Source: an uncultured virus (IMG/VR IMGVR_UViG_3300020576_000847)
Lineage: Duplodnaviria > Heunggongvirae > Uroviricota > Caudoviricetes
IMG/VR virus record: IMGVR_UViG_3300020576_000847
Location: 48,094-68,093 of that record
Length of the DNA stretch: 20,000 bases
Reading direction: 5' to 3' (one strand)
The notes beneath the pieces are model-generated. The model worked only from the letters and a program-made list of their open reading frames with translations. It made no database searches and was not told where the DNA came from. Made by a program: the position numbers and the translations under genes. Below, piece by piece: positions 3,544 through 16,604 of this stretch (its first letter is position 1; every line of letters starts with the position of its first letter).

Positions 3544-3942
3544 TTAAAGAGGTTCGTCCGGCACGAATTGAAGATCGACCGATGCCAGCACGTCCGCGCA
3601 CCATTCCCATGGCAGTTTGAAGTCCTGTGCTGCGGAGTAGAGGTTCATCCCGGCACAGGCGGCGACAGCATCCTGTTCGGATATGATGCCTTCTTCTCCC
3701 CACGCGACTGTATCGGGCAATATGCCCGCCTTCATGCCGGTCCACAGCAGCACATCAGCGTCGGTCGCGCTCATGTCCTGCATCATGTAGTGCGTGGCAG
3801 GCGTCTCATAGGTCGCCTCCGGATCGACGGCGCAGAGCTTGCGGGAGATGTTGTTCGGGCCACGGCCAAGAGCCTCAAGCACGGCATTTATGCCGTCTTT
3901 TGCGGAGACCGGGCAGATAAGAATAGTAGGAAGGTTTGTCAT
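3544..3942 (-). CDS. Hypothetical protein, partner of the upstream lectin-like protein (GC-rich cassette)
   Basis: Start reassigned from 3954 to ATG 3942 (MTNLPTILIC...). That ATG overlaps the upstream TAA (TAATG) and has GGAG just upstream. Confidence 0.7.
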   Translation of the reverse strand: MTNLPTILICPVSAKDGINAVLEALGRGPNNISRKLCAVDPEATYETPATHYMMQDMSATDADVLLWTGMKAGILPDTVAWGEEGIISEQDAVAACAGMNLYSAAQDFKLPWEWCADVLASVDLQFVPDEPL

Positions 3943-5111
3943 TAGTAGCTCCATGCATTAGTGAGTTTGACGATTTCGGCAGGGGTTAGGGCGCGGTTGA
4001 TCGCGAGGGCTTGGTAGATGTCCACCGAAGCGAAGAGCGACGCCACCGAGCTAGCAGCCAGCGCCACGGCATTTGCGATGGTGACGGAGCCTGACTGCGA
4101 TTGGGATGCAAGCAAACCCTCATCGCTGTAGAGATTTACGGTGGTTCCATCCCACGTGAGAACGGCTATCGCTGTCTGGCCGGCGCGGTTCGATCCGCCT
4201 GTGAGATTGGCCCCCGTCCCAACGTTCGCGAGAATTCTGCCATCCGCCGCCAATACCAAGATAACATCATCGGTCGATGCATTGCGCGCGCCCATAAGTA
4301 TCTGGCTGCTGTTGCCAACGGCCTTGTTGAATTTGAGCGCCAGCGAGCCCTTGCCGCCGGCGTCGAATTTGAATGTCGTCAGAAGATTGTCATCCGACCC
4401 GTCATAGCGCGTCAGCCCGCCCGCCTTGAGAACTGGCCGTGCACCAGACGTGGCCTGAGAGGCGCGGTTGCCGGGGATTTCTTTAATGGAGACGTTATCG
4501 AGATACAGCGTCCCCGCCGCGCCGGCGCGAAGGTAGATGTTTATTGTTATCCCGGATGCCCCGGTTCGACAGATGCAGTCGATTGCCTGATCGGATGATG
4601 ACAGCGTAATCGGATTTCCGGAGGGCTGAATGGCCCAACCGCCGGCTATTGTGTCTATCCTAAGAGCCCCGGATGAGGCCGTCCCCAACCGCGCCTTCCC
4701 GACGAGCAAACGGAAGGACGTGTTTGCCGCCAGAACTATCTGTTGCACCACACCCTTGGCAGCGCCATCAGTTGTTAATTGCAGTTCACCGGCGACAACG
4801 GCTATTGTCGCCCCGACATCGTTGGTCGACCATCCGGTTGTGCCGTTGTCGAAGCCACCGTTGACGACAAGCTCCGCCTGCGCCGCCAGCACCTGCGCCA
4901 GCGTCTTGCCACCCCATTTCGATATATCCAGCGCCAACCCGACATTCTGGTCTACGCCAGCCGGGGTAATGCCTGTCGCTTCCTGAAACAGAGTATCGGC
5001 ACGGCTGAAATCATAGAGGAAGCCGTTCTCGCCATTGGCAAAAAGGAAGTAATCGTGCCAACGATAGCCTCTCTTATTATAAAGACCAAAACCAATTCCT
5101 AAATTAAGCAT
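3942..5111 (-). CDS. Putative carbohydrate-binding virion protein (CBM-like insert plus C-terminal ConA/LamG-like domain)
   Basis: 389 aa. N-terminal LFANGENGFLYDFS..TLFQ...VGLALD motif. The segment ELVVNGGFD..GW...LYLDNVSIKE resembles a CBM4/9 beta-sandwich. The C-terminus AVLTWDGTTVNLY...NRALTPAEI resembles LamG. GC content is much higher than in the flanks. Confidence 0.6.
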   Translation of the reverse strand: MLNLGIGFGLYNKRGYRWHDYFLFANGENGFLYDFSRADTLFQEATGITPAGVDQNVGLALDISKWGGKTLAQVLAAQAELVVNGGFDNGTTGWSTNDVGATIAVVAGELQLTTDGAAKGVVQQIVLAANTSFRLLVGKARLGTASSGALRIDTIAGGWAIQPSGNPITLSSSDQAIDCICRTGASGITINIYLRAGAAGTLYLDNVSIKEIPGNRASQATSGARPVLKAGGLTRYDGSDDNLLTTFKFDAGGKGSLALKFNKAVGNSSQILMGARNASTDDVILVLAADGRILANVGTGANLTGGSNRAGQTAIAVLTWDGTTVNLYSDEGLLASQSQSGSVTIANAVALAASSVASLFASVDIYQALAINRALTPAEIVKLTNAWSY

Positions 5112-5984: not shown

Positions 5985-6857
5985 TTAGAAGTTCACGTTA
6001 TAAATAGCGCGAATGAGACCTTCAGGACGGAGAATCTTACGACCATAGACCTGAAGACCACGAGTGATATCAGCAAAGCTGTTAGTATCACGATAGGTTT
6101 CAGTCTTAGTAAGCATCTGAGCCGTAGCACAAGCACTCTTCACACCAGCGACGATAACACCGTAGTTCGTAGCGGAACCATCAGTATCAATCGTACCCGG
6201 ACCAGTACCGAGATACGGGAGCGAGTTGCTCTTATAGACAGAAAAACCACGAAGAGTACCAGCAATAAGCTTGCCATTCGTAAGCTGATCCGCACCCGGA
6301 TTATAATCATTATTGATTAGCTTGGAATTTTCATCCGTAAGCTTCTCAGTAAACACCGGGTCAATCACAATGAAACGACCCTCTTCAGGAACATTCAGTT
6401 CATCAAGCTTACGGGCGAAACGGTTAATAAGCTCAAGCGGGGTAACATCGTAAGTACCCTTAGTACCCACAACGACAGAATCAGACGAAGAACCACCACT
6501 AACAAACGAAGCACGAGTCAGCTTGTTAGCAGCCAGAAGCTCGTCATTATCCGCAGTCGTCCAAGACTTCGAACCGACCGGGGCCGTACGAGCAGCCCAA
6601 GAGATCGAAGACGGGGTATCAGTACGCTCAAAGCCAGACATATAGCCAAGGATATCCGCATCATAGCGTTCCTTAAGTCTATAACCAGCACGGTCAGCAG
6701 CCATATCCATCCAATCAACATGCGACTGCATCTTTTCGATGTCATCGATCTTGAAATTGAACGAATTAGCACGATCAACCGTCAGAATAAAGTCTTCATC
6801 CTGAAGGTCTTGAGCCACAAGCTGCGAACCACGAGCATACGGAGTAACCACAATTTC
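5985..6857 (-). CDS. Major capsid protein, exon 2 (spliced product 354 aa; HK97-fold coat protein)
   Basis: Reads EIVVTPYARG...QDLQDEDFILTVDRANSFNFKIDDIE...ARKLDELNVPEEGRFIVIDP...YRDTNSFADITRGLQVYGRKILRPE. It joins exon 1 in frame (IIKEP|EIVVTPY). Confidence 0.9.
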   Translation of the reverse strand, partial: EIVVTPYARGSQLVAQDLQDEDFILTVDRANSFNFKIDDIEKMQSHVDWMDMAADRAGYRLKERYDADILGYMSGFERTDTPSSISWAARTAPVGSKSWTTADNDELLAANKLTRASFVSGGSSSDSVVVGTKGTYDVTPLELINRFARKLDELNVPEEGRFIVIDPVFTEKLTDENSKLINNDYNPGADQLTNGKLIAGTLRGFSVYKSNSLPYLGTGPGTIDTDGSATNYGVIVAGVKSACATAQMLTKTETYRDTNSFADITRGLQVYGRKILRPEGLIRAIYNVNF

Positions 6858-7749
6858 CAAATATGTTATTATACAGTTGTTTATACTGTATTTCAATAAG
6901 TTTCCTTATTGTTCAGACTATATCTTCATCCTTTATTTCTAAAGGAGCCAAGCACTCTTGGGTTATATTTATTTTGTATTCCATACTTTTATGTATATAT
7001 GGTTTAACAATTGAAATGAATTTATGAGAATCTTTAGTATTTAATCTTACAGAAAAACGATTTGATCTTTTATCACAATCAAATTTAATATCAATATCAT
7101 ATTTTTCTTTAAACCAATCTTTAATAATATTAATTTCATCTAAAGAACAATATGTTGCTATACGAATCATACAACCACAAATTTTATTTTGTTTATTTCG
7201 ACAAATAGTTCCAGAACCATCATCCATAAACCAAAGAGCAAGTCCTTGATCAGTCAAATAATCTAAACATTGTTTAGTAAATACTTTTTCTCCAAATGGG
7301 TATAAAACTCTGTGCATTTGCTTAAAGTATTTATTTGTTTTAGTTGTTTGAAAATTTGTATATTCTTTTTGTGATTGTTTATTAAATGATTTATACTCAT
7401 ATAACTTAGGCCTTTTCCCACCTAAAACAGAATGAAGTAAATCAATTTTATGATTTAAATACTCTTGTTGTTTAGGAGAATGCCCTATAGTTAATTTGCA
7501 ATATTGTGTATTAAAATTATTTTTAGCTAAGTGAAGATTCCCATCACCTAAAACTAGTCCATATAGTATACCACGTTTTTCTTTATTCATTTCATCCTTC
7601 GTTAGTTACTAGAACCACTACTACAAATAAATATAACCTAGTCGTTGAACCTTCCCTTTTCAGGGCTTGGCTGCTGATTACCATTTCAGGCTTCCAGCAA
7701 TTCACTTGGTTTCAAAATTACATTACTGTAAAATGGCCCAAAATTGTTT
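6858..7749 (-). mobile_element. Group I self-splicing intron (probably subgroup IA) in the major capsid gene
   Basis: The 5' exon ends in U and the intron ends in G. P1 is GCCU|AAA-CAAU-UUUGGGC with a U.G pair at the splice site. P10 is CAAUUUU paired with exon GAAAUUG. Core elements: P AAUUGCUGGAAG (7691-7702), Q AAUCAGCAGCC (7669-7679), R GUUCAACGACUAG (7638-7650), S AAGAUAUAGUCU (6915-6926). P3 is CCAAGU/GCUUGG. P2, P6, P8 and P9 hairpins carry GNRA-type loops. Confidence 0.93.
6913..7590 (-). CDS. Intron-encoded LAGLIDADG homing endonuclease (two-motif type)
   Basis: 225 aa, Lys-rich. Motif 1 is GILYGLVLGDGNL and motif 2 is GLALWFMDDGSG. It has its own SD (GAAGGA) and is very AT-rich relative to the flanking exons. 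Confidence 0.9.
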   Translation of the reverse strand: MNKEKRGILYGLVLGDGNLHLAKNNFNTQYCKLTIGHSPKQQEYLNHKIDLLHSVLGGKRPKLYEYKSFNKQSQKEYTNFQTTKTNKYFKQMHRVLYPFGEKVFTKQCLDYLTDQGLALWFMDDGSGTICRNKQNKICGCMIRIATYCSLDEINIIKDWFKEKYDIDIKFDCDKRSNRFSVRLNTKDSHKFISIVKPYIHKSMEYKINITQECLAPLEIKDEDIV

Positions 7750-7941
7750 AGGCTCTTTAATGATCCTGACGCTATCTCCCTGGTTCTTAATCTCACCAAA
7801 ATATTCGGAGTTAGTAATCTGATCAACAACGGTCTTCTTACGGAAAGCCTTCTGGACTTTCTTCGAGTAAATTTGCGGCGACCAAGCTACACCGGGAAGA
7901 TTCCCATAGTTAGCCGCCGTCTGAAAAGCATAACTAGACAT
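7750..7941 (-). CDS. Major capsid protein, exon 1 (64 codons)
   Basis: MSSYAFQTAANYGNLPGVAWSPQIYSKKVQKAFRKKTVVDQITNSEYFGEIKNQGDSVRIIKEP is a typical coat-protein N-terminus. SD GAAGGA; it follows the scaffold gene. Confidence 0.9.
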
Positions 7942-8137
7942 ATATTATATCCTTCTAAAATTGTTTTAAGTTGATAGTTTAACGAAAACCAATCTATAGA
8001 AAGAGGCTATACTCAAGAGTATTCCTTTTGGGAGCTAACCATTAGGAGGTCTATTATATAGGTAGTCTTATTTAGAATTATTTTCCTTATGAAAGTAAAT
8101 TTCAGTAATCTAAGAGGTAGCTTTAATCCAGCTAAGA

Positions 8138-8968
8138 TTAGAAAGCGGCTCCAAGATCATCTAGAATTTTACCTTCACGTCGAGCCTGATCAATTTCAGC
8201 CTCAAGTTTTTCATACTCACGAATACTCATCTTCTCAATTTGAGACAGAGAAAATTTGTAAGTTTTATTAGTATCTTCTGCATTAGGTCTCGTCTGAGAA
8301 CTACGTCCCTGAGGGACAAATGCAGCATCTTCTAATTTATCTTTGGTCTTCTTGATCAGACCTTTAGCATTTTTATATTCAGTAATAGCTCTTGCAGCTT
8401 CAAGACCATCTGTATCTTGTTCATAAACAGCAGAGTAAATCTGTTGATCAATCTTGGAACGGGATAGTCTTTTCTCTTCAAACCAATTCTTAAAATCTTC
8501 TGTTTCTCTGATATCAAAGAAATCACTATGAATTTTAAGAAGGTCATCAAGAGCGCGTTCTCTTGCAAGAGCATAACGATCTTCCTTAAGAGTTTCAATT
8601 TCTCGAACAATCTCTTGAGGAACACCGGGTGACTTCTTCACAATAAGTGTCTCAATCATTCTAGCTACATCAGGGAATTTCTGAAGCCATGCTTCGAACT
8701 CTTCTTCAGTTGCAGGAAGTTCAGTTTTCTTATTTTCAGCAATTGCCTTATCTTTTTCAGCTAGCTGTTTCTTTAAGTCATTAATCTGTTTATCTGCATA
8801 ACTACGAAGATCAGAATACCTTTTACTCCAATTCGTATTATCACCAGATGGTTTTTCAGTTACTTCTTCATCTGTATTGGTATCCGGCCTCTTTTCAAGT
8901 TCAGCAAGTTCAGCATCAAGTTGTGCATCACGATTTTTAACAGTACTTACGAGTGAATAATCAGTCAT
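8138..8968 (-). CDS. Putative capsid scaffolding protein
   Basis: 276 aa, acidic and helical, with WSKRYSDLR and C-terminal IEKMSIREYEKLEAEIDQARREGKI motifs. It lies immediately upstream of the capsid gene. Confidence 0.8.
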   Translation of the reverse strand: MTDYSLVSTVKNRDAQLDAELAELEKRPDTNTDEEVTEKPSGDNTNWSKRYSDLRSYADKQINDLKKQLAEKDKAIAENKKTELPATEEEFEAWLQKFPDVARMIETLIVKKSPGVPQEIVREIETLKEDRYALARERALDDLLKIHSDFFDIRETEDFKNWFEEKRLSRSKIDQQIYSAVYEQDTDGLEAARAITEYKNAKGLIKKTKDKLEDAAFVPQGRSSQTRPNAEDTNKTYKFSLSQIEKMSIREYEKLEAEIDQARREGKILDDLGAAF

Positions 8969-9020
8969 TATTTTTCCTTTTCATGGGGCCTCCTACTTGA
9001 GGGTAGCCATTAATTATTAA

Positions 9021-9329
9021 TTACTTTAAAAAGAACTTAGCGTCTTTTATTTTATTATTTTTTGATAAAGTTCCCGGTTTGTTACTTTCTCTGAGTGTAC
9101 GATTATTAATCTTATAATCACCAGTATATTGAGCTAAACCGGGGTTTATATTATTCATTTGTTCATTAATATTTGGTTTTACTTTAGAAATAGGAGTTTT
9201 ATCTTTAAGTCTTTCATTAGTATTACCAATTAAATCTCTAATAAACTTTTGATCATCTAAAACATGTTTATATTCAGAAGGTGTTTGTTTCTGAACATTC
9301 TTAGACTGTCTGCGACCTTCTAATTTCAT
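9021..9329 (-). CDS. Hypothetical basic protein
   Basis: 102 aa, Lys/Asn-rich, abutting the upstream gene. Confidence 0.55.
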   Translation of the reverse strand: MKLEGRRQSKNVQKQTPSEYKHVLDDQKFIRDLIGNTNERLKDKTPISKVKPNINEQMNNINPGLAQYTGDYKINNRTLRESNKPGTLSKNNKIKDAKFFLK

Positions 9330-10295
9330 TTAGTATAAACCTCCTGTACCTCTATCTACTGCATCTCTAGCAGCATCAGAAAGCCCACCTCTACCACCAT
9401 TTAGAGAAGTATCACGTTCTCTTTCTTCAGTATGAGCAGACTCCTTAACGTTACTAAATCCTCTGTTGGAAGTTGAAGCAGAAGGGGCATCAGGAAACTG
9501 ATCATATTTACCACCTGATTTAGGTGAAGCTACAGTCATGTTACCAATTTTAGTAGTTTCTACATCATCATCAAATAAACTAGAGAAAATGTTACTAGCC
9601 ATTGATCTAATACCACTAAATAATCCCTTTTTAGACTCATCTTGATTCTTAGAAAGTTCAATATTTTCAGGGTTGGCAAATGATCTTTTTCTAGCTTCAT
9701 CAGGAGTTAATGCAGTTTTACCACTAGGGGTCATAGCCTCTAAAGAAACAGAATAAGGATTAGTTTTTCCTGCTTGATTAGTGATATCAACATTAGCTAC
9801 AAAACCTTGTCTGTCTTTAGCAATACCACTAAGAACATCCTTATTAGATAACCCTTCAATACCCATCATACCCCTAGCAGCAGAAACAGCGCCTACGTTA
9901 TTTGCATTTATTGTAGCATTGATACCTTTGCCTGCTAAACCTAAAGCACCGGGTAAATTAGATAACATGCCCATACCTGTAGGTTTGTCAAAATATCCAA
10001 AGTTATTAGAGGGGTCTCTGTGGTAATTATCTCCAGTAAAACCAGTACCTTGGCCTTCTAGTCTTCTCCATTCTTGCTGCTGTTCTTGTTCTCTACTATC
10101 TTTAACAGTTTCTGTAGGGGTTTTAGGGGTAATAGGAGAGTCTTGTGGTTGTTGATTTAACCCAAGACCATAATCTTCTAAATTAATTTGTTGCCAAGCA
10201 GGGATAATATTCTGTCCTGATATAGGTTGGCCTGTAACTGAATCAATCATCTCGATCTGACCAGTTTGTGGATTAACCCTTGGGAATGTGACCAT
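9330..10295 (-). CDS. Putative internal virion (ejection) protein
   Basis: 321 aa, low complexity, with a Gly/Ala-rich amphipathic segment. It lies between portal and scaffold. Confidence 0.55.
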   Translation of the reverse strand: MVTFPRVNPQTGQIEMIDSVTGQPISGQNIIPAWQQINLEDYGLGLNQQPQDSPITPKTPTETVKDSREQEQQQEWRRLEGQGTGFTGDNYHRDPSNNFGYFDKPTGMGMLSNLPGALGLAGKGINATINANNVGAVSAARGMMGIEGLSNKDVLSGIAKDRQGFVANVDITNQAGKTNPYSVSLEAMTPSGKTALTPDEARKRSFANPENIELSKNQDESKKGLFSGIRSMASNIFSSLFDDDVETTKIGNMTVASPKSGGKYDQFPDAPSASTSNRGFSNVKESAHTEERERDTSLNGGRGGLSDAARDAVDRGTGGLY

Positions 10296-10312
10296 TAGTT
10301 ACCCCTTTGATT

Positions 10313-12265
10313 TTAATTTTCATCTGTTTTCCCACTAGTTCTCCCACCGGATTTATCAGTAGAGCTAAAACCACCACCAACACCAGCAGTACCTACACCC
10401 CCAGCTCGGCCTCCACTAGAACCACTTGATTTGTTACCACCAGTAGAACCAGATTTACCAGAAGATTGGGCATCACCTGAAGATTTAGCCCCACCATAAG
10501 ATGAAGTACCTTTATCAGATGCTCCAGTGTTAGAGCTTGCAGCAAACCCGCCTCTGCCTCTACCACCTTGACTTTCACCATTAGCAGCAGAAACAGCAGA
10601 AGTCATATCTGCACCACTTCCAAATCTACCAAGATCGGGTCCGAAACCAGAACTATAAGACTGTCCAAAAGAACCGCCTTTAGAAGTAATACCTCCACCA
10701 CCAGGATCAGACGAGAAATTACCACCTCTCCTACTCTCTGAAGGGGCATCCATGTTACCTGTATTAGGTGCACCTGAATAAGTATGCATACTACTTGTTT
10801 CAGAATACCCCTTTTTACCTTCAGTTGATATCATAGCACCAATCATAGTTTCTCTTTGAGCCATTGAAAGATCAGAGAGTCTAGTATCAGCAGGAAGTCC
10901 TAAAGCTTTTGTTACATTAGAGATATAACTTTTTGTATTATTCTCTTCCGGAGGGGCATAGGAAGTGATAGCTTGTTCGATAGTCTTATTGATACTAGCA
11001 CTAAAGAGGAGGTCTTGCATTGCTGCTATACCTTGTTTAGGATCAGTAAACACAGCAAATCTACCATCATCACCTATTGCACCAAATCTTTCAGCTCTAG
11101 GACCCATCTCCAGATTTCCCGGATTATTATTTCTAGAACTACGATCTCCAGAACGAGTGGTAGTAGTGTAACCATTATCAATAGTAGTAAAACCTTTACC
11201 ACCTGAAACAGTAACCCCCGGATCAATCCCACTCTTTTGGGCTTCCATCGCAGCAATACTTCCAGCAGATAAACCAGCAACAGTATTTGGACCATAAGGT
11301 GCTCCTGTAGCTGTAGCAGGGGATTGAGGATCATTAGGGCCAAATGGAGTAGGAGCACCAAAAGTAGGTGTAGGTCCTATTCCAGTTGATCTAGCAAAAT
11401 CTAAATTATTAGCAAAGTTAGGGTCAATACCTCTACGAGAATTTCCTGCACCCCAAGAAGCAGGATCATTAGCCATATCAAGGTGCATAGTATTAGGTCC
11501 CATATACCCTTTATTATAACCAATACCTGCTGTAGGATTTCTAGCAGCAAAATCCATGGCAATATCTTCCATGGCAACTCTATTATTAACAGTTTTTCCT
11601 GATTGATCTTTTACTTGGAAATCAAGTGCATCACCTGCCCTGTGTCTATGAGAACCATAATTACCTTTACCTGAAGTCCCTACAACAGAAGAATTAGGTC
11701 CCATAACATTGCCAACTGAAGTTTGAATATTACTAATGATATCTGCATTAGGTCTATTAGGTCTATTAGGGCCATAAGACTCAATAAAGCCTACTCTAGC
11801 ATTCTTTCCATCTTCAGGAGTACTAGTTAAGTTAGCTAGTCCAGCACCTTTAGTAACCTCTCTGCCTGAACTTGATCTAGCAACTTCTGAAGTAGTTCTT
11901 GTTGGAGATACAGTTTGTGATTGAGAGTTGACAGAGGAAAGATTCGTAGAGCCTCCCCCTGCAACTGTAGCCCGAGAGCTTCCAGAACTAACGGGACTAA
12001 TACTATCAGAATTACTTACATTAGATAAACTCTGAGTCTGAGCATCTAGTCCTCTATCTGCAAGAGATGTTGGATTTAAAGGTTCTGGATCAGGGTCACT
12101 AATATTTTGAACCTGTTCGATATTCTGTTGATTAGCATTAATAACTTTATAATTACTAAGATCATCTATGGGTTGTAGAGTCTCAAGATCAATATAAATT
12201 AACCTGATATTACCAGAATCATCTGTAACTATTCTTTGTATTGCTCTCTTAGGCTGTTGTGCCAT
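10313..12265 (-). CDS. Putative internal virion protein with M15-like peptidase and lysozyme-like domains
   Basis: 650 aa. SHRHRAGDALDF...GIG...MHLD matches the M15 / Hedgehog-DD-peptidase zinc motifs. RNNNPGNL...GRFAVF...YAPPEENNT is a lysozyme-like motif set seen in phage virion proteins. Linkers are Ser/Gly-rich. Confidence 0.65.
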   Translation of the reverse strand: MAQQPKRAIQRIVTDDSGNIRLIYIDLETLQPIDDLSNYKVINANQQNIEQVQNISDPDPEPLNPTSLADRGLDAQTQSLSNVSNSDSISPVSSGSSRATVAGGGSTNLSSVNSQSQTVSPTRTTSEVARSSSGREVTKGAGLANLTSTPEDGKNARVGFIESYGPNRPNRPNADIISNIQTSVGNVMGPNSSVVGTSGKGNYGSHRHRAGDALDFQVKDQSGKTVNNRVAMEDIAMDFAARNPTAGIGYNKGYMGPNTMHLDMANDPASWGAGNSRRGIDPNFANNLDFARSTGIGPTPTFGAPTPFGPNDPQSPATATGAPYGPNTVAGLSAGSIAAMEAQKSGIDPGVTVSGGKGFTTIDNGYTTTTRSGDRSSRNNNPGNLEMGPRAERFGAIGDDGRFAVFTDPKQGIAAMQDLLFSASINKTIEQAITSYAPPEENNTKSYISNVTKALGLPADTRLSDLSMAQRETMIGAMISTEGKKGYSETSSMHTYSGAPNTGNMDAPSESRRGGNFSSDPGGGGITSKGGSFGQSYSSGFGPDLGRFGSGADMTSAVSAANGESQGGRGRGGFAASSNTGASDKGTSSYGGAKSSGDAQSSGKSGSTGGNKSSGSSGGRAGGVGTAGVGGGFSSTDKSGGRTSGKTDEN

Positions 12266-12485
12266 GTTTTCTTTCCTCTTGTTTCCATATATTCATGGCT
12301 ACATCAGCAGCACCAGTTAAACGACGAAGTTCAGCAATTCTACCTTGAAGTTCCTTAATAACATAGATATCAGATTCTTTTTCAAGAAGTAATCTAAGTT
12401 CTTCTATTCTTTCTTCAGAATAAGCAATTGCTGCACCTTTGAAATTACCAGAACCTAAGATAATACTAGCTACAGGTTTCTTCAC
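12249..12485 (-). CDS. Small conserved protein downstream of portal
   Basis: 78 aa helical protein with an IKELQGRIAELRRL motif. It overlaps both neighbouring genes. Confidence 0.7.
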   Translation of the reverse strand: MKKPVASIILGSGNFKGAAIAYSEERIEELRLLLEKESDIYVIKELQGRIAELRRLTGAADVAMNIWKQEERKHGTTA

Positions 12486-14602
12486 TGCATTCTACTCCCC
12501 GGAGGTTGATTATTAGGTGGAGTACCACCAGTTCCACCATTAGAACTAAATCCTTGTGAACCCGGATTAGGAGTAGTTGTAGGTGTATTAGGCCCTTGTG
12601 GGCCAGCAGGAGGAGGACTACCTTGAGCCATTTTATTAGGATCAATACCCATAGCTTCATTTAACTTTTTCATAGCTTCTGCCTGAAGAACAGCTTCTCT
12701 AGGATCATTAACTGCTTTATCAGGATCAATATCATTACTCTGGAAAAGTTCTCTCAAGATATAATCTCTACGAACAAAAGGAGCATCCATTGGATTAGCA
12801 GTAGTCTGAAGAGCCTGTTGAAGTCTTTGTGCTCTGATTTCATTTCTCATGAGACTTTCAGTTGCACGAGGAACAATATCAAGATCGCCTACAATTTCTT
12901 CATCAAAAAAGAATTGCATATTAAAAGCAAATAGAGAACGACCAAGAGGCATTAATAAATAATCATCAATGTTCTTGACAACTGTTTTGATGTTCTGAGC
13001 ACTTGCTCCCATAAGCATAGACATACCTGAAGCAGTTCTGCCAATACTCTGGATATTACTCTGGCCATGTGAATAACTAGGAATACCTGTAGCTTCATCT
13101 GCAAGCTGCCTTGCTTTATCAAATAGCATAAGACATTCAGTAGTCACATTATCCCATTTAAGAGAATGGATAGCCTGACCAGCATTTCCTTCTGTATAAT
13201 AAACTTTACCTGGTCGCATAGTCATATCCTGACCATCTTCAAGATAAGTTTTATTAACTTCAAAAGAGATATTTGAAGAAAGAATACCGTTATCAACAGC
13301 TAATCTCATAAAACCATTCATGAGAGTTTGAGTGTCTTCCATATTCTCTGCAACACCTACTCCAAATATAGAATAGGGGTTTAGTTCATAAGGACAGAGG
13401 AAATAAGGTATTCTAGCAGGAGTAAAAGGATTATAAGCCAGACGGATGATTCTATTGTTACAGATGAAGACATTAACCTGAACCTGATCTTTATCCTTAT
13501 AAACATTAGGAATTTTAATATCAGTCAGTTCTTCAAAATCCTTATCGGCAATACCCCAAAATTCTAGAACTTCATAAGATTCAGACTGATCTCTTGATTT
13601 ATAATCTTCAAGAGTGCTTTCCCAATATTCTGGTTCATAATTAGGGCCATCTTTGATAACTTCTTCGATGACATCTTCTCTAAAGTGAGGGCGATTCTTT
13701 AATGCTCTCAATTGGGTTTTATTCATCTTATGACGCTCAATTAAATATTCAGCATCTTCGATTTTAGTTACTTCTGGATCAGGGTAAAGATTCCAGATAG
13801 AAACATGATGAAAATCTGCTATTGTTTTCTCAATTGGAGAATAAGAGCCTTGATTATCCCACTTAGGGTATTCTTTCTTTTTAGCTACAGGGCCTTTATA
13901 AGCACCTGAACCAAGCAAAGCCATCTCAAAAACAGTCAACCTAAGCGTTTTATTAGCATCTGCTTCTGCAAGTTGATCAAAGAACTTCTTTTCCATCTTC
14001 TTAGCTGCCTCTTTGGCAGGTTCAAATGTAACAGAAGTAGGAGAAGTACCGGGGCCGTTCTTGAGTTTATCTTCAACACCTGAAAGTTTCTCTTTATAAG
14101 GTCCAAGTTCCTCTAAAATATCAGGGCGAACTATAGTATTAGTACTACCGCCTTGAGATTGAGGCTCTTGAGGGTCAAAATGAACACTCTCTGCAATTCC
14201 AAGAGGGACAGGAGAGGGTTCAATACCAAGAGGGAATTTATTATTACTGAATAAGATATCAATAATTTGAGAATAAGCGGCTAAGACTTTAGTTTTAGTA
14301 ATTTTCATAAAGATTTGAGATTTTTCAAACTCAGTAAAAGGGGCATACTGGCCTCTGTAGTTACTATAAGCTCTTAACCATCTCATTTCATCATTTCTAC
14401 GTCGATCTTTAGACCTTTCGAATCGTTCTTTGATATAAGAAACCAAAGGAGAGTGTTTTACTTCATCTTGAGGGTCTTTTGTATCCTTTAAGGTTTCAAC
14501 ATCATCAATAGCATGATCGATAGTAGCACCTGCGGTCATGAAACCTTCAAAAGATGACCCAAGTTTTCCGAAAGAGTTCGGAGTTTTATTTTCTATATCC
14601 AT
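12482..14602 (-). CDS. Portal protein
   Basis: 706 aa with KITKTKVLAAYSQI, SIWNLYPDP, PYELNPYSIFGVGVAENM and RTASGMSMLM motifs and a Pro/Gly-rich tail. It follows terL. Confidence 0.9.
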   Translation of the reverse strand: MDIENKTPNSFGKLGSSFEGFMTAGATIDHAIDDVETLKDTKDPQDEVKHSPLVSYIKERFERSKDRRRNDEMRWLRAYSNYRGQYAPFTEFEKSQIFMKITKTKVLAAYSQIIDILFSNNKFPLGIEPSPVPLGIAESVHFDPQEPQSQGGSTNTIVRPDILEELGPYKEKLSGVEDKLKNGPGTSPTSVTFEPAKEAAKKMEKKFFDQLAEADANKTLRLTVFEMALLGSGAYKGPVAKKKEYPKWDNQGSYSPIEKTIADFHHVSIWNLYPDPEVTKIEDAEYLIERHKMNKTQLRALKNRPHFREDVIEEVIKDGPNYEPEYWESTLEDYKSRDQSESYEVLEFWGIADKDFEELTDIKIPNVYKDKDQVQVNVFICNNRIIRLAYNPFTPARIPYFLCPYELNPYSIFGVGVAENMEDTQTLMNGFMRLAVDNGILSSNISFEVNKTYLEDGQDMTMRPGKVYYTEGNAGQAIHSLKWDNVTTECLMLFDKARQLADEATGIPSYSHGQSNIQSIGRTASGMSMLMGASAQNIKTVVKNIDDYLLMPLGRSLFAFNMQFFFDEEIVGDLDIVPRATESLMRNEIRAQRLQQALQTTANPMDAPFVRRDYILRELFQSNDIDPDKAVNDPREAVLQAEAMKKLNEAMGIDPNKMAQGSPPPAGPQGPNTPTTTPNPGSQGFSSNGGTGGTPPNNQPPGSRMQ

Positions 14603-14615
14603 TCATCTTTCCTAT

Positions 14616-16604
14616 TTAATACCCAAATATAGGGTCTAAGACCGTTTGACTATGATAATTATGATGATATTTCCTTGTAGGAGCAGGTTCCCAACCACTT
14701 GGGGCTTTAGGACGAGATAAAATACCATATCTGATACTATCATAAGCATGATCACTAGTGAATTTAGGATCAATATCGTCTGTCCCATCGGGATCGGTAG
14801 GAATAACAGGAAGATCGGCTAATATTTGTCTACAAGTATCAAAGAAAATAATACCCGGACGTTTAGTAACTGGATCAACTCTAAGTAATTCATGTAATCT
14901 CATACGTCCATGGACTCTACTTGTAGGGAATTTATTATCAGCAGGTCTCCATTTACATCCAGCTTTGATCATTTCCTCTGCTGGTGACATGCCTGTTGCA
15001 CCTCTTCTAGCCCAAGTACTGAAATCAAGAACACCATAAGATATTCTCTCACCTTTTTCTAATTCAAGAACTCTTTTGGCAACTTCAGTAGCAGTCATTT
15101 TAGTCACATATAATTCTCTGTAGACTACTAATTGACCATCTATAGGGTCGATTGCATACCAATGAACAGCAGTACCTGATCTATCAGAATAACCCCAATC
15201 ACATGATCTGAATCTTCTCCAATCACTAGGGATGACTCTAGGTCTACAAACATGTAAGTCTGTTCTGAATTCAGAGAAGGCAGCGCCATCAGCTATATTC
15301 CAATCACCTTCAAGTAACTGTCTACGCTGTTGTTCTGGAAGAGACAGAAGACCAGCTTCATAATTACCATCTTCATACAGATAAGGATTATCAGATAACT
15401 TACTTGGAATAAACCTGCGTCTGAAGATTGGTTTCCCTGCTTTACTTTCATCTGAATGATTATCAGGAAAACGAATTATTTCACCTTCTGAGTTTCTAGC
15501 CCAAAAAGAATAATTAAATGGGGCTGGATCAATAAACATTTGTTTAACCCAACCATGTCCTGGACCACCGGGGTTAGTAGTTGCTCTCATAAACAGAGAG
15601 TTCTCTAGTCCTGAACCTTTCTTCGCACGTAGACGAGATTTAAGTTTTACCCAAGGTTCTGGTGTAGGCCACTGAGTCAACTCATCAAATGCTATATATG
15701 TATATTCCTGACCAATAAACCTTTTGAAATCTCTATCATCATCAAAATAGGTCATCCAGAGTTTAGCACCTGAAGGAAAAGTCCATGTAGATTTCTGAAC
15801 ATGGAATTGAACATCTTTACCAAATAAAGCAGGGTAAAGCTCTTCTGATTTCTTTATCAAATCTCTAAGTTCATCATTAGTTCTACGGAGGATTAATCCA
15901 TTGAAGTGTTTATTATGAACAAATCTGAGAACATCAGCAAGTAAAGCCATCGATTTCCCGCCGCCTGCTGCTCCTCCGAAGAGGACCTCTTGTTCTTCAG
16001 CAGCAAGGAATTCTGTCTGTGGTCCGGGGTTAGGCTCAAAAGCAATTGGTACATCTTCGGTAAATGTGCTCTTATCAAGTTCCATGGGAGGAAGATCGAT
16101 AACAGGAGAAAATGATTCAATATGCTCTTGTTCTTTTACTTTTAATGTACCCTCAAGTTTAGCTATTTGTTTTTCAATTGCTTTCTTTGATTTCTTGATA
16201 TTAGCAATTTTCTGTTTGATAAGCCTTTGAGTTTTCTTTGTTCTAGTTACAGGTTTATTATAAGAAGGATTGATCTTTCTGATGTAGTCAGGACGGTATT
16301 GAGTTCTCAGTTTCTTAAGCCCAGCGTGAGACAGAGAAAGATCAATCCCATGTTTTTGTAAGTTATAGTTAAAACTATCGGCTGCCTCTCTTAAGGAGAT
16401 ACCGTTGTCTAACTGATCTAAGGCTACTGAGAGACAGGAGAAGATTACCGGATCAGCGACAAGGAGACTGGGATCACCTCCCTTCTTTGAATACCCAAAT
16501 GGGGGTCTTACACCTAAGTTTGGAATTTCTTTGGGATACCATTCTGTATCCTCCTTACTTACATTTACCTGTATGTTTTCTTCCACACTTCTTGCACTTA
16601 CCAT
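14616..16604 (-). CDS. terL: Terminase large subunit with N-terminal extension
   Basis: Walker A GGAAGGGKS, Walker B YIAFDE, coupling motif RATTNPGG, nuclease motifs SCDWGY and DHAYDSIRY. About 185 extra N-terminal residues; the start codon is uncertain. Confidence 0.93.
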   Translation of the reverse strand: MVSARSVEENIQVNVSKEDTEWYPKEIPNLGVRPPFGYSKKGGDPSLLVADPVIFSCLSVALDQLDNGISLREAADSFNYNLQKHGIDLSLSHAGLKKLRTQYRPDYIRKINPSYNKPVTRTKKTQRLIKQKIANIKKSKKAIEKQIAKLEGTLKVKEQEHIESFSPVIDLPPMELDKSTFTEDVPIAFEPNPGPQTEFLAAEEQEVLFGGAAGGGKSMALLADVLRFVHNKHFNGLILRRTNDELRDLIKKSEELYPALFGKDVQFHVQKSTWTFPSGAKLWMTYFDDDRDFKRFIGQEYTYIAFDELTQWPTPEPWVKLKSRLRAKKGSGLENSLFMRATTNPGGPGHGWVKQMFIDPAPFNYSFWARNSEGEIIRFPDNHSDESKAGKPIFRRRFIPSKLSDNPYLYEDGNYEAGLLSLPEQQRRQLLEGDWNIADGAAFSEFRTDLHVCRPRVIPSDWRRFRSCDWGYSDRSGTAVHWYAIDPIDGQLVVYRELYVTKMTATEVAKRVLELEKGERISYGVLDFSTWARRGATGMSPAEEMIKAGCKWRPADNKFPTSRVHGRMRLHELLRVDPVTKRPGIIFFDTCRQILADLPVIPTDPDGTDDIDPKFTSDHAYDSIRYGILSRPKAPSGWEPAPTRKYHHNYHSQTVLDPIFGY

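Follow-up and report, generated by a model that had tools for sequence, protein, structure and literature searches.

Capsid-gene introns in described phages

A spliced capsid-gene intron is documented in mycobacteriophage LittleE, where it was shown by N-terminal sequencing and RT-PCR (Pope et al., 2013; PMC3706429), and a capsid-gene intron of Tuc2009 is cited in the same paper. Introns in the gene for the major capsid protein (MCP) are called typical for the Delta-group crAss-like phages (Yutin et al., 2021; PMC7886860); in the Delta and Zeta groups they are group I introns, several per gene and with LAGLIDADG open reading frames (ORFs), and one crAss-like MCP gene is found in five fragments. 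The Bastillevirinae introns are mostly of subgroup IA with HNH ORFs, a phrog_11023 endonuclease being reported once, in a DNA polymerase intron (PMC11878797), and the five examples in Table 1 of PMC3073962 have their ORFs in P1, P6a or P8, none in P7.1. The preference of such introns for nucleotide-metabolism genes was still termed mysterious in 2025 (PMC12350094), and the discussion of polymerase introns in related marine phages is speculation only (PMC10580990).

The window analyzed here, 20,000 nucleotides long, is the final 20 kb of a phage genome that is complete at 68,093 nt and has terminal repeats. Our main reading, to which we give a probability of about 0.9, is that a group I intron interrupts the sole MCP gene of this phage, houses an intact LAGLIDADG gene, is predicted to be self-splicing and is likely to home into intron-less capsid genes; splicing and homing are what we infer, from anatomy, conservation, covariation and selection that are observed in the sequence. 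A capsid-gene group I intron is a known kind of element, and the copy in the window is a further member, its own family being widespread and associated with capsid genes. The preliminary description of this DNA is upheld in placing a group I intron in the MCP gene but not in its implication that capsid-gene introns are rare, since they are published for LittleE, Tuc2009 and the Delta-group crAss-like phages.

The intron resembles that of LittleE in its length (about 0.8-0.9 kb), its position in the major capsid gene, the exon U, the terminal G and a LAGLIDADG-like ORF. However, the LittleE ORF is on the opposite strand and the class of its intron is only tentatively group I, whereas the ORF in the window is co-oriented, lies in P7.1 and overlaps the core; the host phage sets the two apart as well, the window coming from a phiM6/HMO-2011-like phage. 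LittleE is not among the matches listed for the endonuclease and the intron, and is likened by description. The best named-phage matches of the endonuclease are crAss-like (30-33%), but those phages belong to another order with another capsid family and have intron-rich genomes, whereas the capsid intron is the only one found in the window's genome. The group IA introns of T4, SPO1, Twort and the Bastillevirinae share the core elements, the loop endonuclease and the creep of the ORF into the core (PMC11878797; PMC3073962), and differ in lying mostly in DNA-metabolism genes and in carrying HNH or GIY-YIG ORFs. I-SceI offers a likeness for the protein, as a two-motif monomeric LAGLIDADG enzyme (Pfam LAGLIDADG_2; PDB 1r7m, 6x1j) with both motif aspartates, although its family, which is fungal mitochondrial and has other targets, is distant from the enzyme described here. 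A literature search, mostly of open-access papers without supplements, returned nothing on introns in capsid genes of the phiM6/HMO-2011 type.

The capsid locus

The window holds a minus-strand virion module consisting of terminase, portal, scaffold-like protein, MCP and adaptor genes. The nearest named capsids are those of the Rhizobium phages RHph_N3_13, N3_19 and I3_11 and of Sinorhizobium phage phiM6 (58-60% over exon 2), whose genomes are also 68 kb, followed by the HMO-2011-type marine phages; phiM6 has itself been likened to HMO-2011 (PMC6256558). The capsid locus has three parts:

7750..7941, minus strand: MCP exon 1, codons 1-64, ending in the splice-site U (phrog_267 profile positions 20-78; tblastn 54-70% to phiM6/HMO-2011-type capsids)
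6858..7749, minus strand: group I intron of 892 nt with a GC content of 27%, the exons having 44-47% (Rfam RF00028, GC, covariation)
5985..6857, minus strand: MCP exon 2, codons 65-354 and stop (phrog_267, E 9e-49; 58-60% to the phiM6 and RHph_N3_13 capsids)

Exon 1 (192 nt, 7941-7750) and exon 2 (873 nt, 6857-5985) fuse in frame between codons P64 and E65 once the 892 nt are removed, as had been proposed with exact coordinates, and encode 354 aa with a single terminal stop; the frame read into the unspliced intron stops at 7725-7723, which bears out the predicted 72-aa stub. The expectation that automated annotation would call two unrelated ORFs needs amending, as three ORFs would be called and both capsid pieces match phrog_267; the third, a 225-aa LAGLIDADG ORF filling most of the intron, was not named in the text of the preliminary description.

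Colinearity with intron-less capsids, proposed earlier as a check, is found across the junction. Exon-2 queries fetched 94 capsid loci (85 continuous, 5 split, 4 truncated), and none of the 85 continuous loci has a gap over residues 56-73. Exon 1 matched 31 phage records, 27 of them also among the matches listed for exon 2, and in all 27 the two matches abut. Contigs from 4 of the 21 public runs listed contained no 6857-to-7750 joint; two of these runs are probably DNA, and cover is sparse in the true RNA runs.

No second capsid gene was found in the genome by tblastn, which leaves the MCP gene as the sole one. The other 48.5 kb gave no further group I intron (Rfam, E 0.1; motif scan), in a search of limited sensitivity, given that the family search missed even the capsid intron; the genes for polymerase, reductase and thymidylate synthase each form one ORF and gave no Rfam intron match. 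With no match in those three genes and the only intron found lying in the capsid gene, this genome favors an essential, conserved target over the regulation of nucleotide metabolism as the explanation of intron placement, and it adds to the case that phage group I introns regularly reside in capsid genes as well as in DNA-metabolism genes. Surveys of phiM6/HMO-2011-like phages that use the capsid as marker will miss or truncate genes split in this way.

A reading without splicing, in which exon 2 is translated alone or the gene has been killed (an assembly artefact or a defective phage), could draw on a 303-aa ORF that starts in frame at TTG 6896 and on a sigma-70-like site (11 of 12 positions) at 6896-6868 on the minus strand, at the intron's 3′ end. 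This candidate internal promoter was rejected, as its -10 box is altered in the sister contig L003 and the site is not conserved; moreover, exon 1 is conserved (54-70%), and the same intron recurs with intact structure in many independent contigs. Three other runs contain all sampled words of the stretch, although they are possibly its source. We consider such a reading extremely improbable.

Structure and covariation of the ribozyme

The group I model RF00028 matches both intron halves on the minus strand, in agreement with the earlier identification: the 5′ piece covers 7755-7570 (46.3 bits, E 4e-9) and the 3′ piece 6928-6896 (25.6 bits, E 0.0065). Neither reaches the gathering score of 50 bits alone, the former falling short because the ORF splits the match. 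The elements of the ribozyme are as follows:

7736..7753, minus strand: P1 helix with the U7750.G7739 wobble; its internal guide also pairs with 6857-6850 as P10 (P1 paired in 95 of 95 cells)
7718..7731, minus strand: P2 hairpin, within which the 72-aa stub terminates at the in-frame stop 7725-7723
7639..7709, minus strand: core 5′ half with P3 (7709-7704), P4, P5, P6, P6a and the P7 5′ strand (7643-7639) (Rfam, covariation)
7627..7638, minus strand: P7.1 5′ strand, 12 bp with 6972-6961, closing off the ORF (covariation)
7595..7617, minus strand: small hairpin 7617-7603 and Shine-Dalgarno-like purine run 7600-7595, upstream of the endonuclease start
6858..6972, minus strand: core 3′ half with P7.1′, P3′ (6953-6948), P8, P7′ (6920-6916), P9, P9.1 and G6858 (Rfam, covariation)

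The splice sites agree with those described from the first inspection of this DNA, with the exon U at 7750, the terminal G at 6858, a 7-bp P1 (7753-7747 with 7742-7736) containing the U.G wobble, and a P10 of 7-8 bp (6857-6850 with 7740-7747), given there as 7 bp. The features that define group I introns are present, namely the P3-P7 pseudoknot, P4-P6, P8, P9 and the G-C pair of the guanosine site. The 3′ half folds more stably than shuffled sequences (z -4.0; none of 200 shuffles as stable), and the 5′ half alone folds no better than they do (z -1.3).

Covariation was assessed on an alignment of 22 orthologous introns from one insertion site, reduced to 19 copies after the near-duplicates L003, L111 and L113 had been dropped. 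All 22 copies together pair in 99.1% of 989 cells, against 31-50% in slid controls, and 21 of the 45 pairs show two-sided changes; these amount to 116 cells compared with 29.7 in shuffles, none of 500 shuffles being as high, figures that are favored by the structure having been taken from the window's copy and by kinship among the sequences. Within the 19 copies, P3 is paired in 114/114 cells across the 750-nt ORF with 28 two-sided changes, P9 likewise in 114/114 cells with 28, and P7.1 in 145/151 cells with 37, while P4 and P7 are invariant. P2 and P9.1 align too loosely and were left out of the counts, as was the hairpin preceding the ribosome site (7617-7603), which is predicted in most orthologues and lies in a region of equally loose alignment. 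The U.G pair at the 5′ splice site and a P10 of 4-8 bp occur in 22/22 copies, and the guide tracks changes in the exons, preserving P1 pairs in L045 and L104 and P10 pairs in L037 and L045. The introns of the window and L003 differ at 31 of 892 nt, including two compensatory pairs (7630/6969 and 6890/6872).

P7.1 begins straight after P7 and ends 60 nt ahead of the ORF stop. One or more extra helices between P7 and P3 mark subgroup IA, and P7.1 together with P7.2 marks IA2. On the former criterion, the extra P7-P3 helix suggests that the intron belongs to subgroup IA; the alignment of 22 copies shows no separate P7.2 after P7.1. The alignment is a natural covariation set for an ORF residing in P7.1.

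From this architecture, a course of splicing can be proposed. The exon-1 frame terminates 8 codons into the intron, within P2. An in-frame stop within 12 codons of the intron start is found in 19/19 orthologues, compared with 12/19 and 6/19 in the other two frames, and would keep ribosomes away from the ribozyme core. P7.1, judged from its covariation, would hold the 678-nt ORF away from the core, allowing P3, with strands 750 nt apart, and P7 to form. By the known chemistry of group I introns, a guanosine held at the G-C pair of P7 would attack after U7750, P10 would align the 3′ exon, and ligation at G6858 would restore the 354-aa frame.

It could be argued that splicing occurs only with help, either from a maturase function of the protein that the intron encodes or from a ribosome halting in P2 during translation. 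Maturases are known among LAGLIDADG proteins (PMC3073962), excision of the T4 reductase intron is translation-dependent (PMC11878797), a stop in or before P2 is kept in 19/19 copies despite length changes, and a hairpin at 6962-6948 is present that competes with the core. Against the need for a maturase, one contig (L049) has a frameshifted endonuclease yet an intact core, and ORF-less introns occur in the same gene family (sites 58, 99 and 337); the stop, for its part, may be merely P2 loop sequence. We think help of this kind possible but unlikely, and retain self-splicing as the preferred reading. The competing hairpin is a local one of 5 bp on the minus strand, opposed to P3 in the window's copy and L003 and not kept in other orthologues.

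The LAGLIDADG endonuclease gene

The gene inside the intron is intact:

6913..7590, minus strand: LAGLIDADG_2 (I-SceI-like, two-motif) homing endonuclease gene, 225 aa (Pfam PF03161, E 3e-29)

The PF03161 match scores 102 bits against a cut-off of 25, the protein also matches phrog_11023, and its family profile matches PDB 6x1j and 1r7m (I-SceI) with profile E values of 1e-14 to 1e-11. The gene sits in the P7.1 loop, and its last 19 codons overlap P7.1′, P3′, P8, J8/7 and P7′, an overlap of ORF and core sequence known as "core creep" (PMC3073962). For its translation, the endonuclease would rely on a separate ribosome site (7600-7595), on RNA that is unspliced or already excised; with P3′, P8 and P7′ lying within the stretch read as its final codons, translation should compete with splicing on any one molecule.

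Among 191 candidates we found 110 homologues, 83 of them at 50% identity or more. D16, D123 and D124 are invariant in all 39 aligned endonucleases, most of which end in the peptide encoded by the J8/7-P7 element; the family is therefore intron-embedded. Compared with L003, the gene has 20 silent and 6 replacement changes (dN/dS 0.06), and the median for orthologues is 0.24, taken from the 41 of 210 pairs that are unsaturated; judged by these ratios, the endonuclease is under purifying selection. A frameshift was found in 1 of 22 copies (that of L049).

The association with capsid genes follows the identity of the endonuclease. A capsid piece lies beside the gene in 41/41 loci at 50% identity or more, in 33/43 at 35-50% and in 11/77 below, these 161 endonuclease-match loci including some duplicated across collections and the capsid being detected with the window's capsid only. 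In a phylogenetic tree of the endonucleases (58 rows, 2 of 60 having been dropped as short), all 18 sequences from site 64 group together with support 99, joined by single sequences from codon 61 and from codon 47. The presence of this clade at the latter codons indicates that the endonuclease gene moved between neighboring introns; the two introns concerned are at L026:2839-3748 and L114:111-1011, respectively.

Distribution and probable mobility

Orthologous introns occupy the identical nucleotide in capsids that are about 45-55% identical to that of the window. Codon 64 is CCT in 19/19 carriers compared with 20/61 distinct intron-less alleles, as the splice site needs the U, and codon 63 is GAG in 18/19 carriers compared with 24/61. 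On a 63-row tree of exon-2 capsid sequences, in which occupancy is inflated because the carriers were found via the endonuclease, the distribution of the intron requires 6 changes, 5 of them forced by starred branches; such counts do not distinguish gain from loss. The capsid of the window groups with the intron-less L006 and L007 (100/100) inside a mostly intron-less clade, the nearest being 88% identical.

Homing would account for a distribution of this kind: in a mixed infection, the endonuclease would cut the intron-less allele near codons 55-70, and repair of the cut allele would copy in the intron together with flanking exon bases. Alternatively, the intron may splice but be immobile by now, an old resident that is often lost, its endonuclease retained for some other role or having fallen idle only recently. 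The absence of the intron from all 76 top-ranked capsid loci covering the site in a broader capsid scan is consistent with this, as are the saturation of synonymous sites in most orthologue pairs (169 of 210 unusable) and the lack of direction in the tree counts. The dN/dS of 0.06 between two close copies, however, points to strong purifying selection, the catalytic aspartates are invariant, and the presence of the same endonuclease clade in introns at codons 47 and 61 needs movement; we consider immobility decidedly improbable.

The element might also be kept for the benefit of the phage, the endonuclease cutting the capsid gene of co-infecting competitors. There is a precedent for such interference competition in PhiPA3 gp210 (bioRxiv 10.1101/2023.09.30.560319), and capsids of 45-60% identity have the target peptide conserved, so that many competitors would carry the site. 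Homing alone, however, accounts for every observation made here, which makes this a rather unlikely addition.

Codons 55-64 (7779-7750, minus strand) are the least typical 10-codon segment of the capsid gene (0.28 against a median of 0.77) and contain the rare codons GGA, AGG and AAA. Of the 21 bases surrounding the empty codon-56 site, 8 are not those of L003. Atypical codons at this position would be as expected of imported flanks. A co-conversion gradient relative to L003 was considered and rejected, since the middle of the gene is a divergent patch on a background of 97-98% identity and mosaicism is too general. Recoding of the codon-56 site as resistance to an endonuclease was likewise set aside as not special by itself, AGC or AGT at codon 57 being found in 20/62 intron-less alleles.

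No named phage matches more than about 10% of the intron, and the three such matches that were checked fall within or next to genes for terminase and RNA polymerase and genes without a name. In the cultured phages DES1 (OK624832.1; our L290) and Moonfish (PQ613263.1; L292), genes for terminase and RNA polymerase are split by group I introns that seem not to be annotated. A tandem pair of group I-like cores, not in a capsid gene, lies on a 95-kb gut phage contig (L265:1260-1700, reverse strand).

Other introns of the capsid family

The capsid family has about ten intron sites, after codons 44, 46, 47 (in two phases), 56, 64 and 337 and within codons 58, 61 and 99; eight of them fall within codons 44-64, and sites 44, 56, 61 and 99 each rest on one contig. 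The sites come from a filtered junction mapper, which miscalled several loci (L037, L043, L044, L104, L112 and others), for which separate mapping was used. The introns at sites 58, 99 and 337 include ORF-less ones. L003 holds three capsid introns, the first two separated by a 24-nt exon; its group I intron after codon 56 (L003:1195-2084) has a different LAGLIDADG gene, 33% identical to that of the window. L045 contains three endonuclease-bearing inserts and L116 two.

The ORF-less intron after codon 337 occurs in three contigs and is absent from the window altogether:

L003:3820-4141: codon-337 intron, 322 nt, with spare exon
L004:1317-1638: codon-337 intron, 322 nt, with spare exon
L005:1383-1649: codon-337 intron, 267 nt, without spare exon

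The L003 and L004 copies are identical across this intron and perhaps not independent. Their 55 extra nucleotides fall in the P1 loop, where they extend the capsid frame by 17 codons and a stop, matching the true last exon. The spare and true exons differ at 15 of 54 bases and in 10 of 18 codons, yet in only one residue; when 15 changes were drawn at random 200,000 times, no set preserved the protein to this degree. The guide of this intron retains only about 4 pairs, and unspliced RNA of L003 or L004 would, from its sequence, still yield a full-length capsid. The spare-exon intron of these sister contigs is an example, open to testing, of an intron rendered harmless while being kept. A pattern scan for further site-337 introns returned five stretches, the three known ones and two outside capsid genes, and the literature searched, mostly open-access papers without supplements, held nothing on spare-exon introns.

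Tentatively, and with more doubt than confidence, codons 44-64 may be seen as a contested homing arena, in which a capsid-specialized I-SceI-like clade hops between neighboring introns and may cut the capsid genes of competitors, while the spare exon of L003 and L004 would be a response to the burden of splicing that leaves capsid synthesis no longer dependent on it. What merits bench work here is the capsid-specialist clade of endonucleases together with the spare-exon intron.

A tail or decoration module of GC-rich appearance (3945-5111 and 3544-3954, minus strand) is absent or replaced in L003 and L004, where the blastn match jumps from 5429 to 3306, and represents a swapped cassette. Elsewhere in the genome (L287:5382-6897 and 7881-16559) there are six tRNA genes, together with an operon whose genes are of the amidotransferase, amidoligase, COOH-NH2 ligase and RimK-like types.
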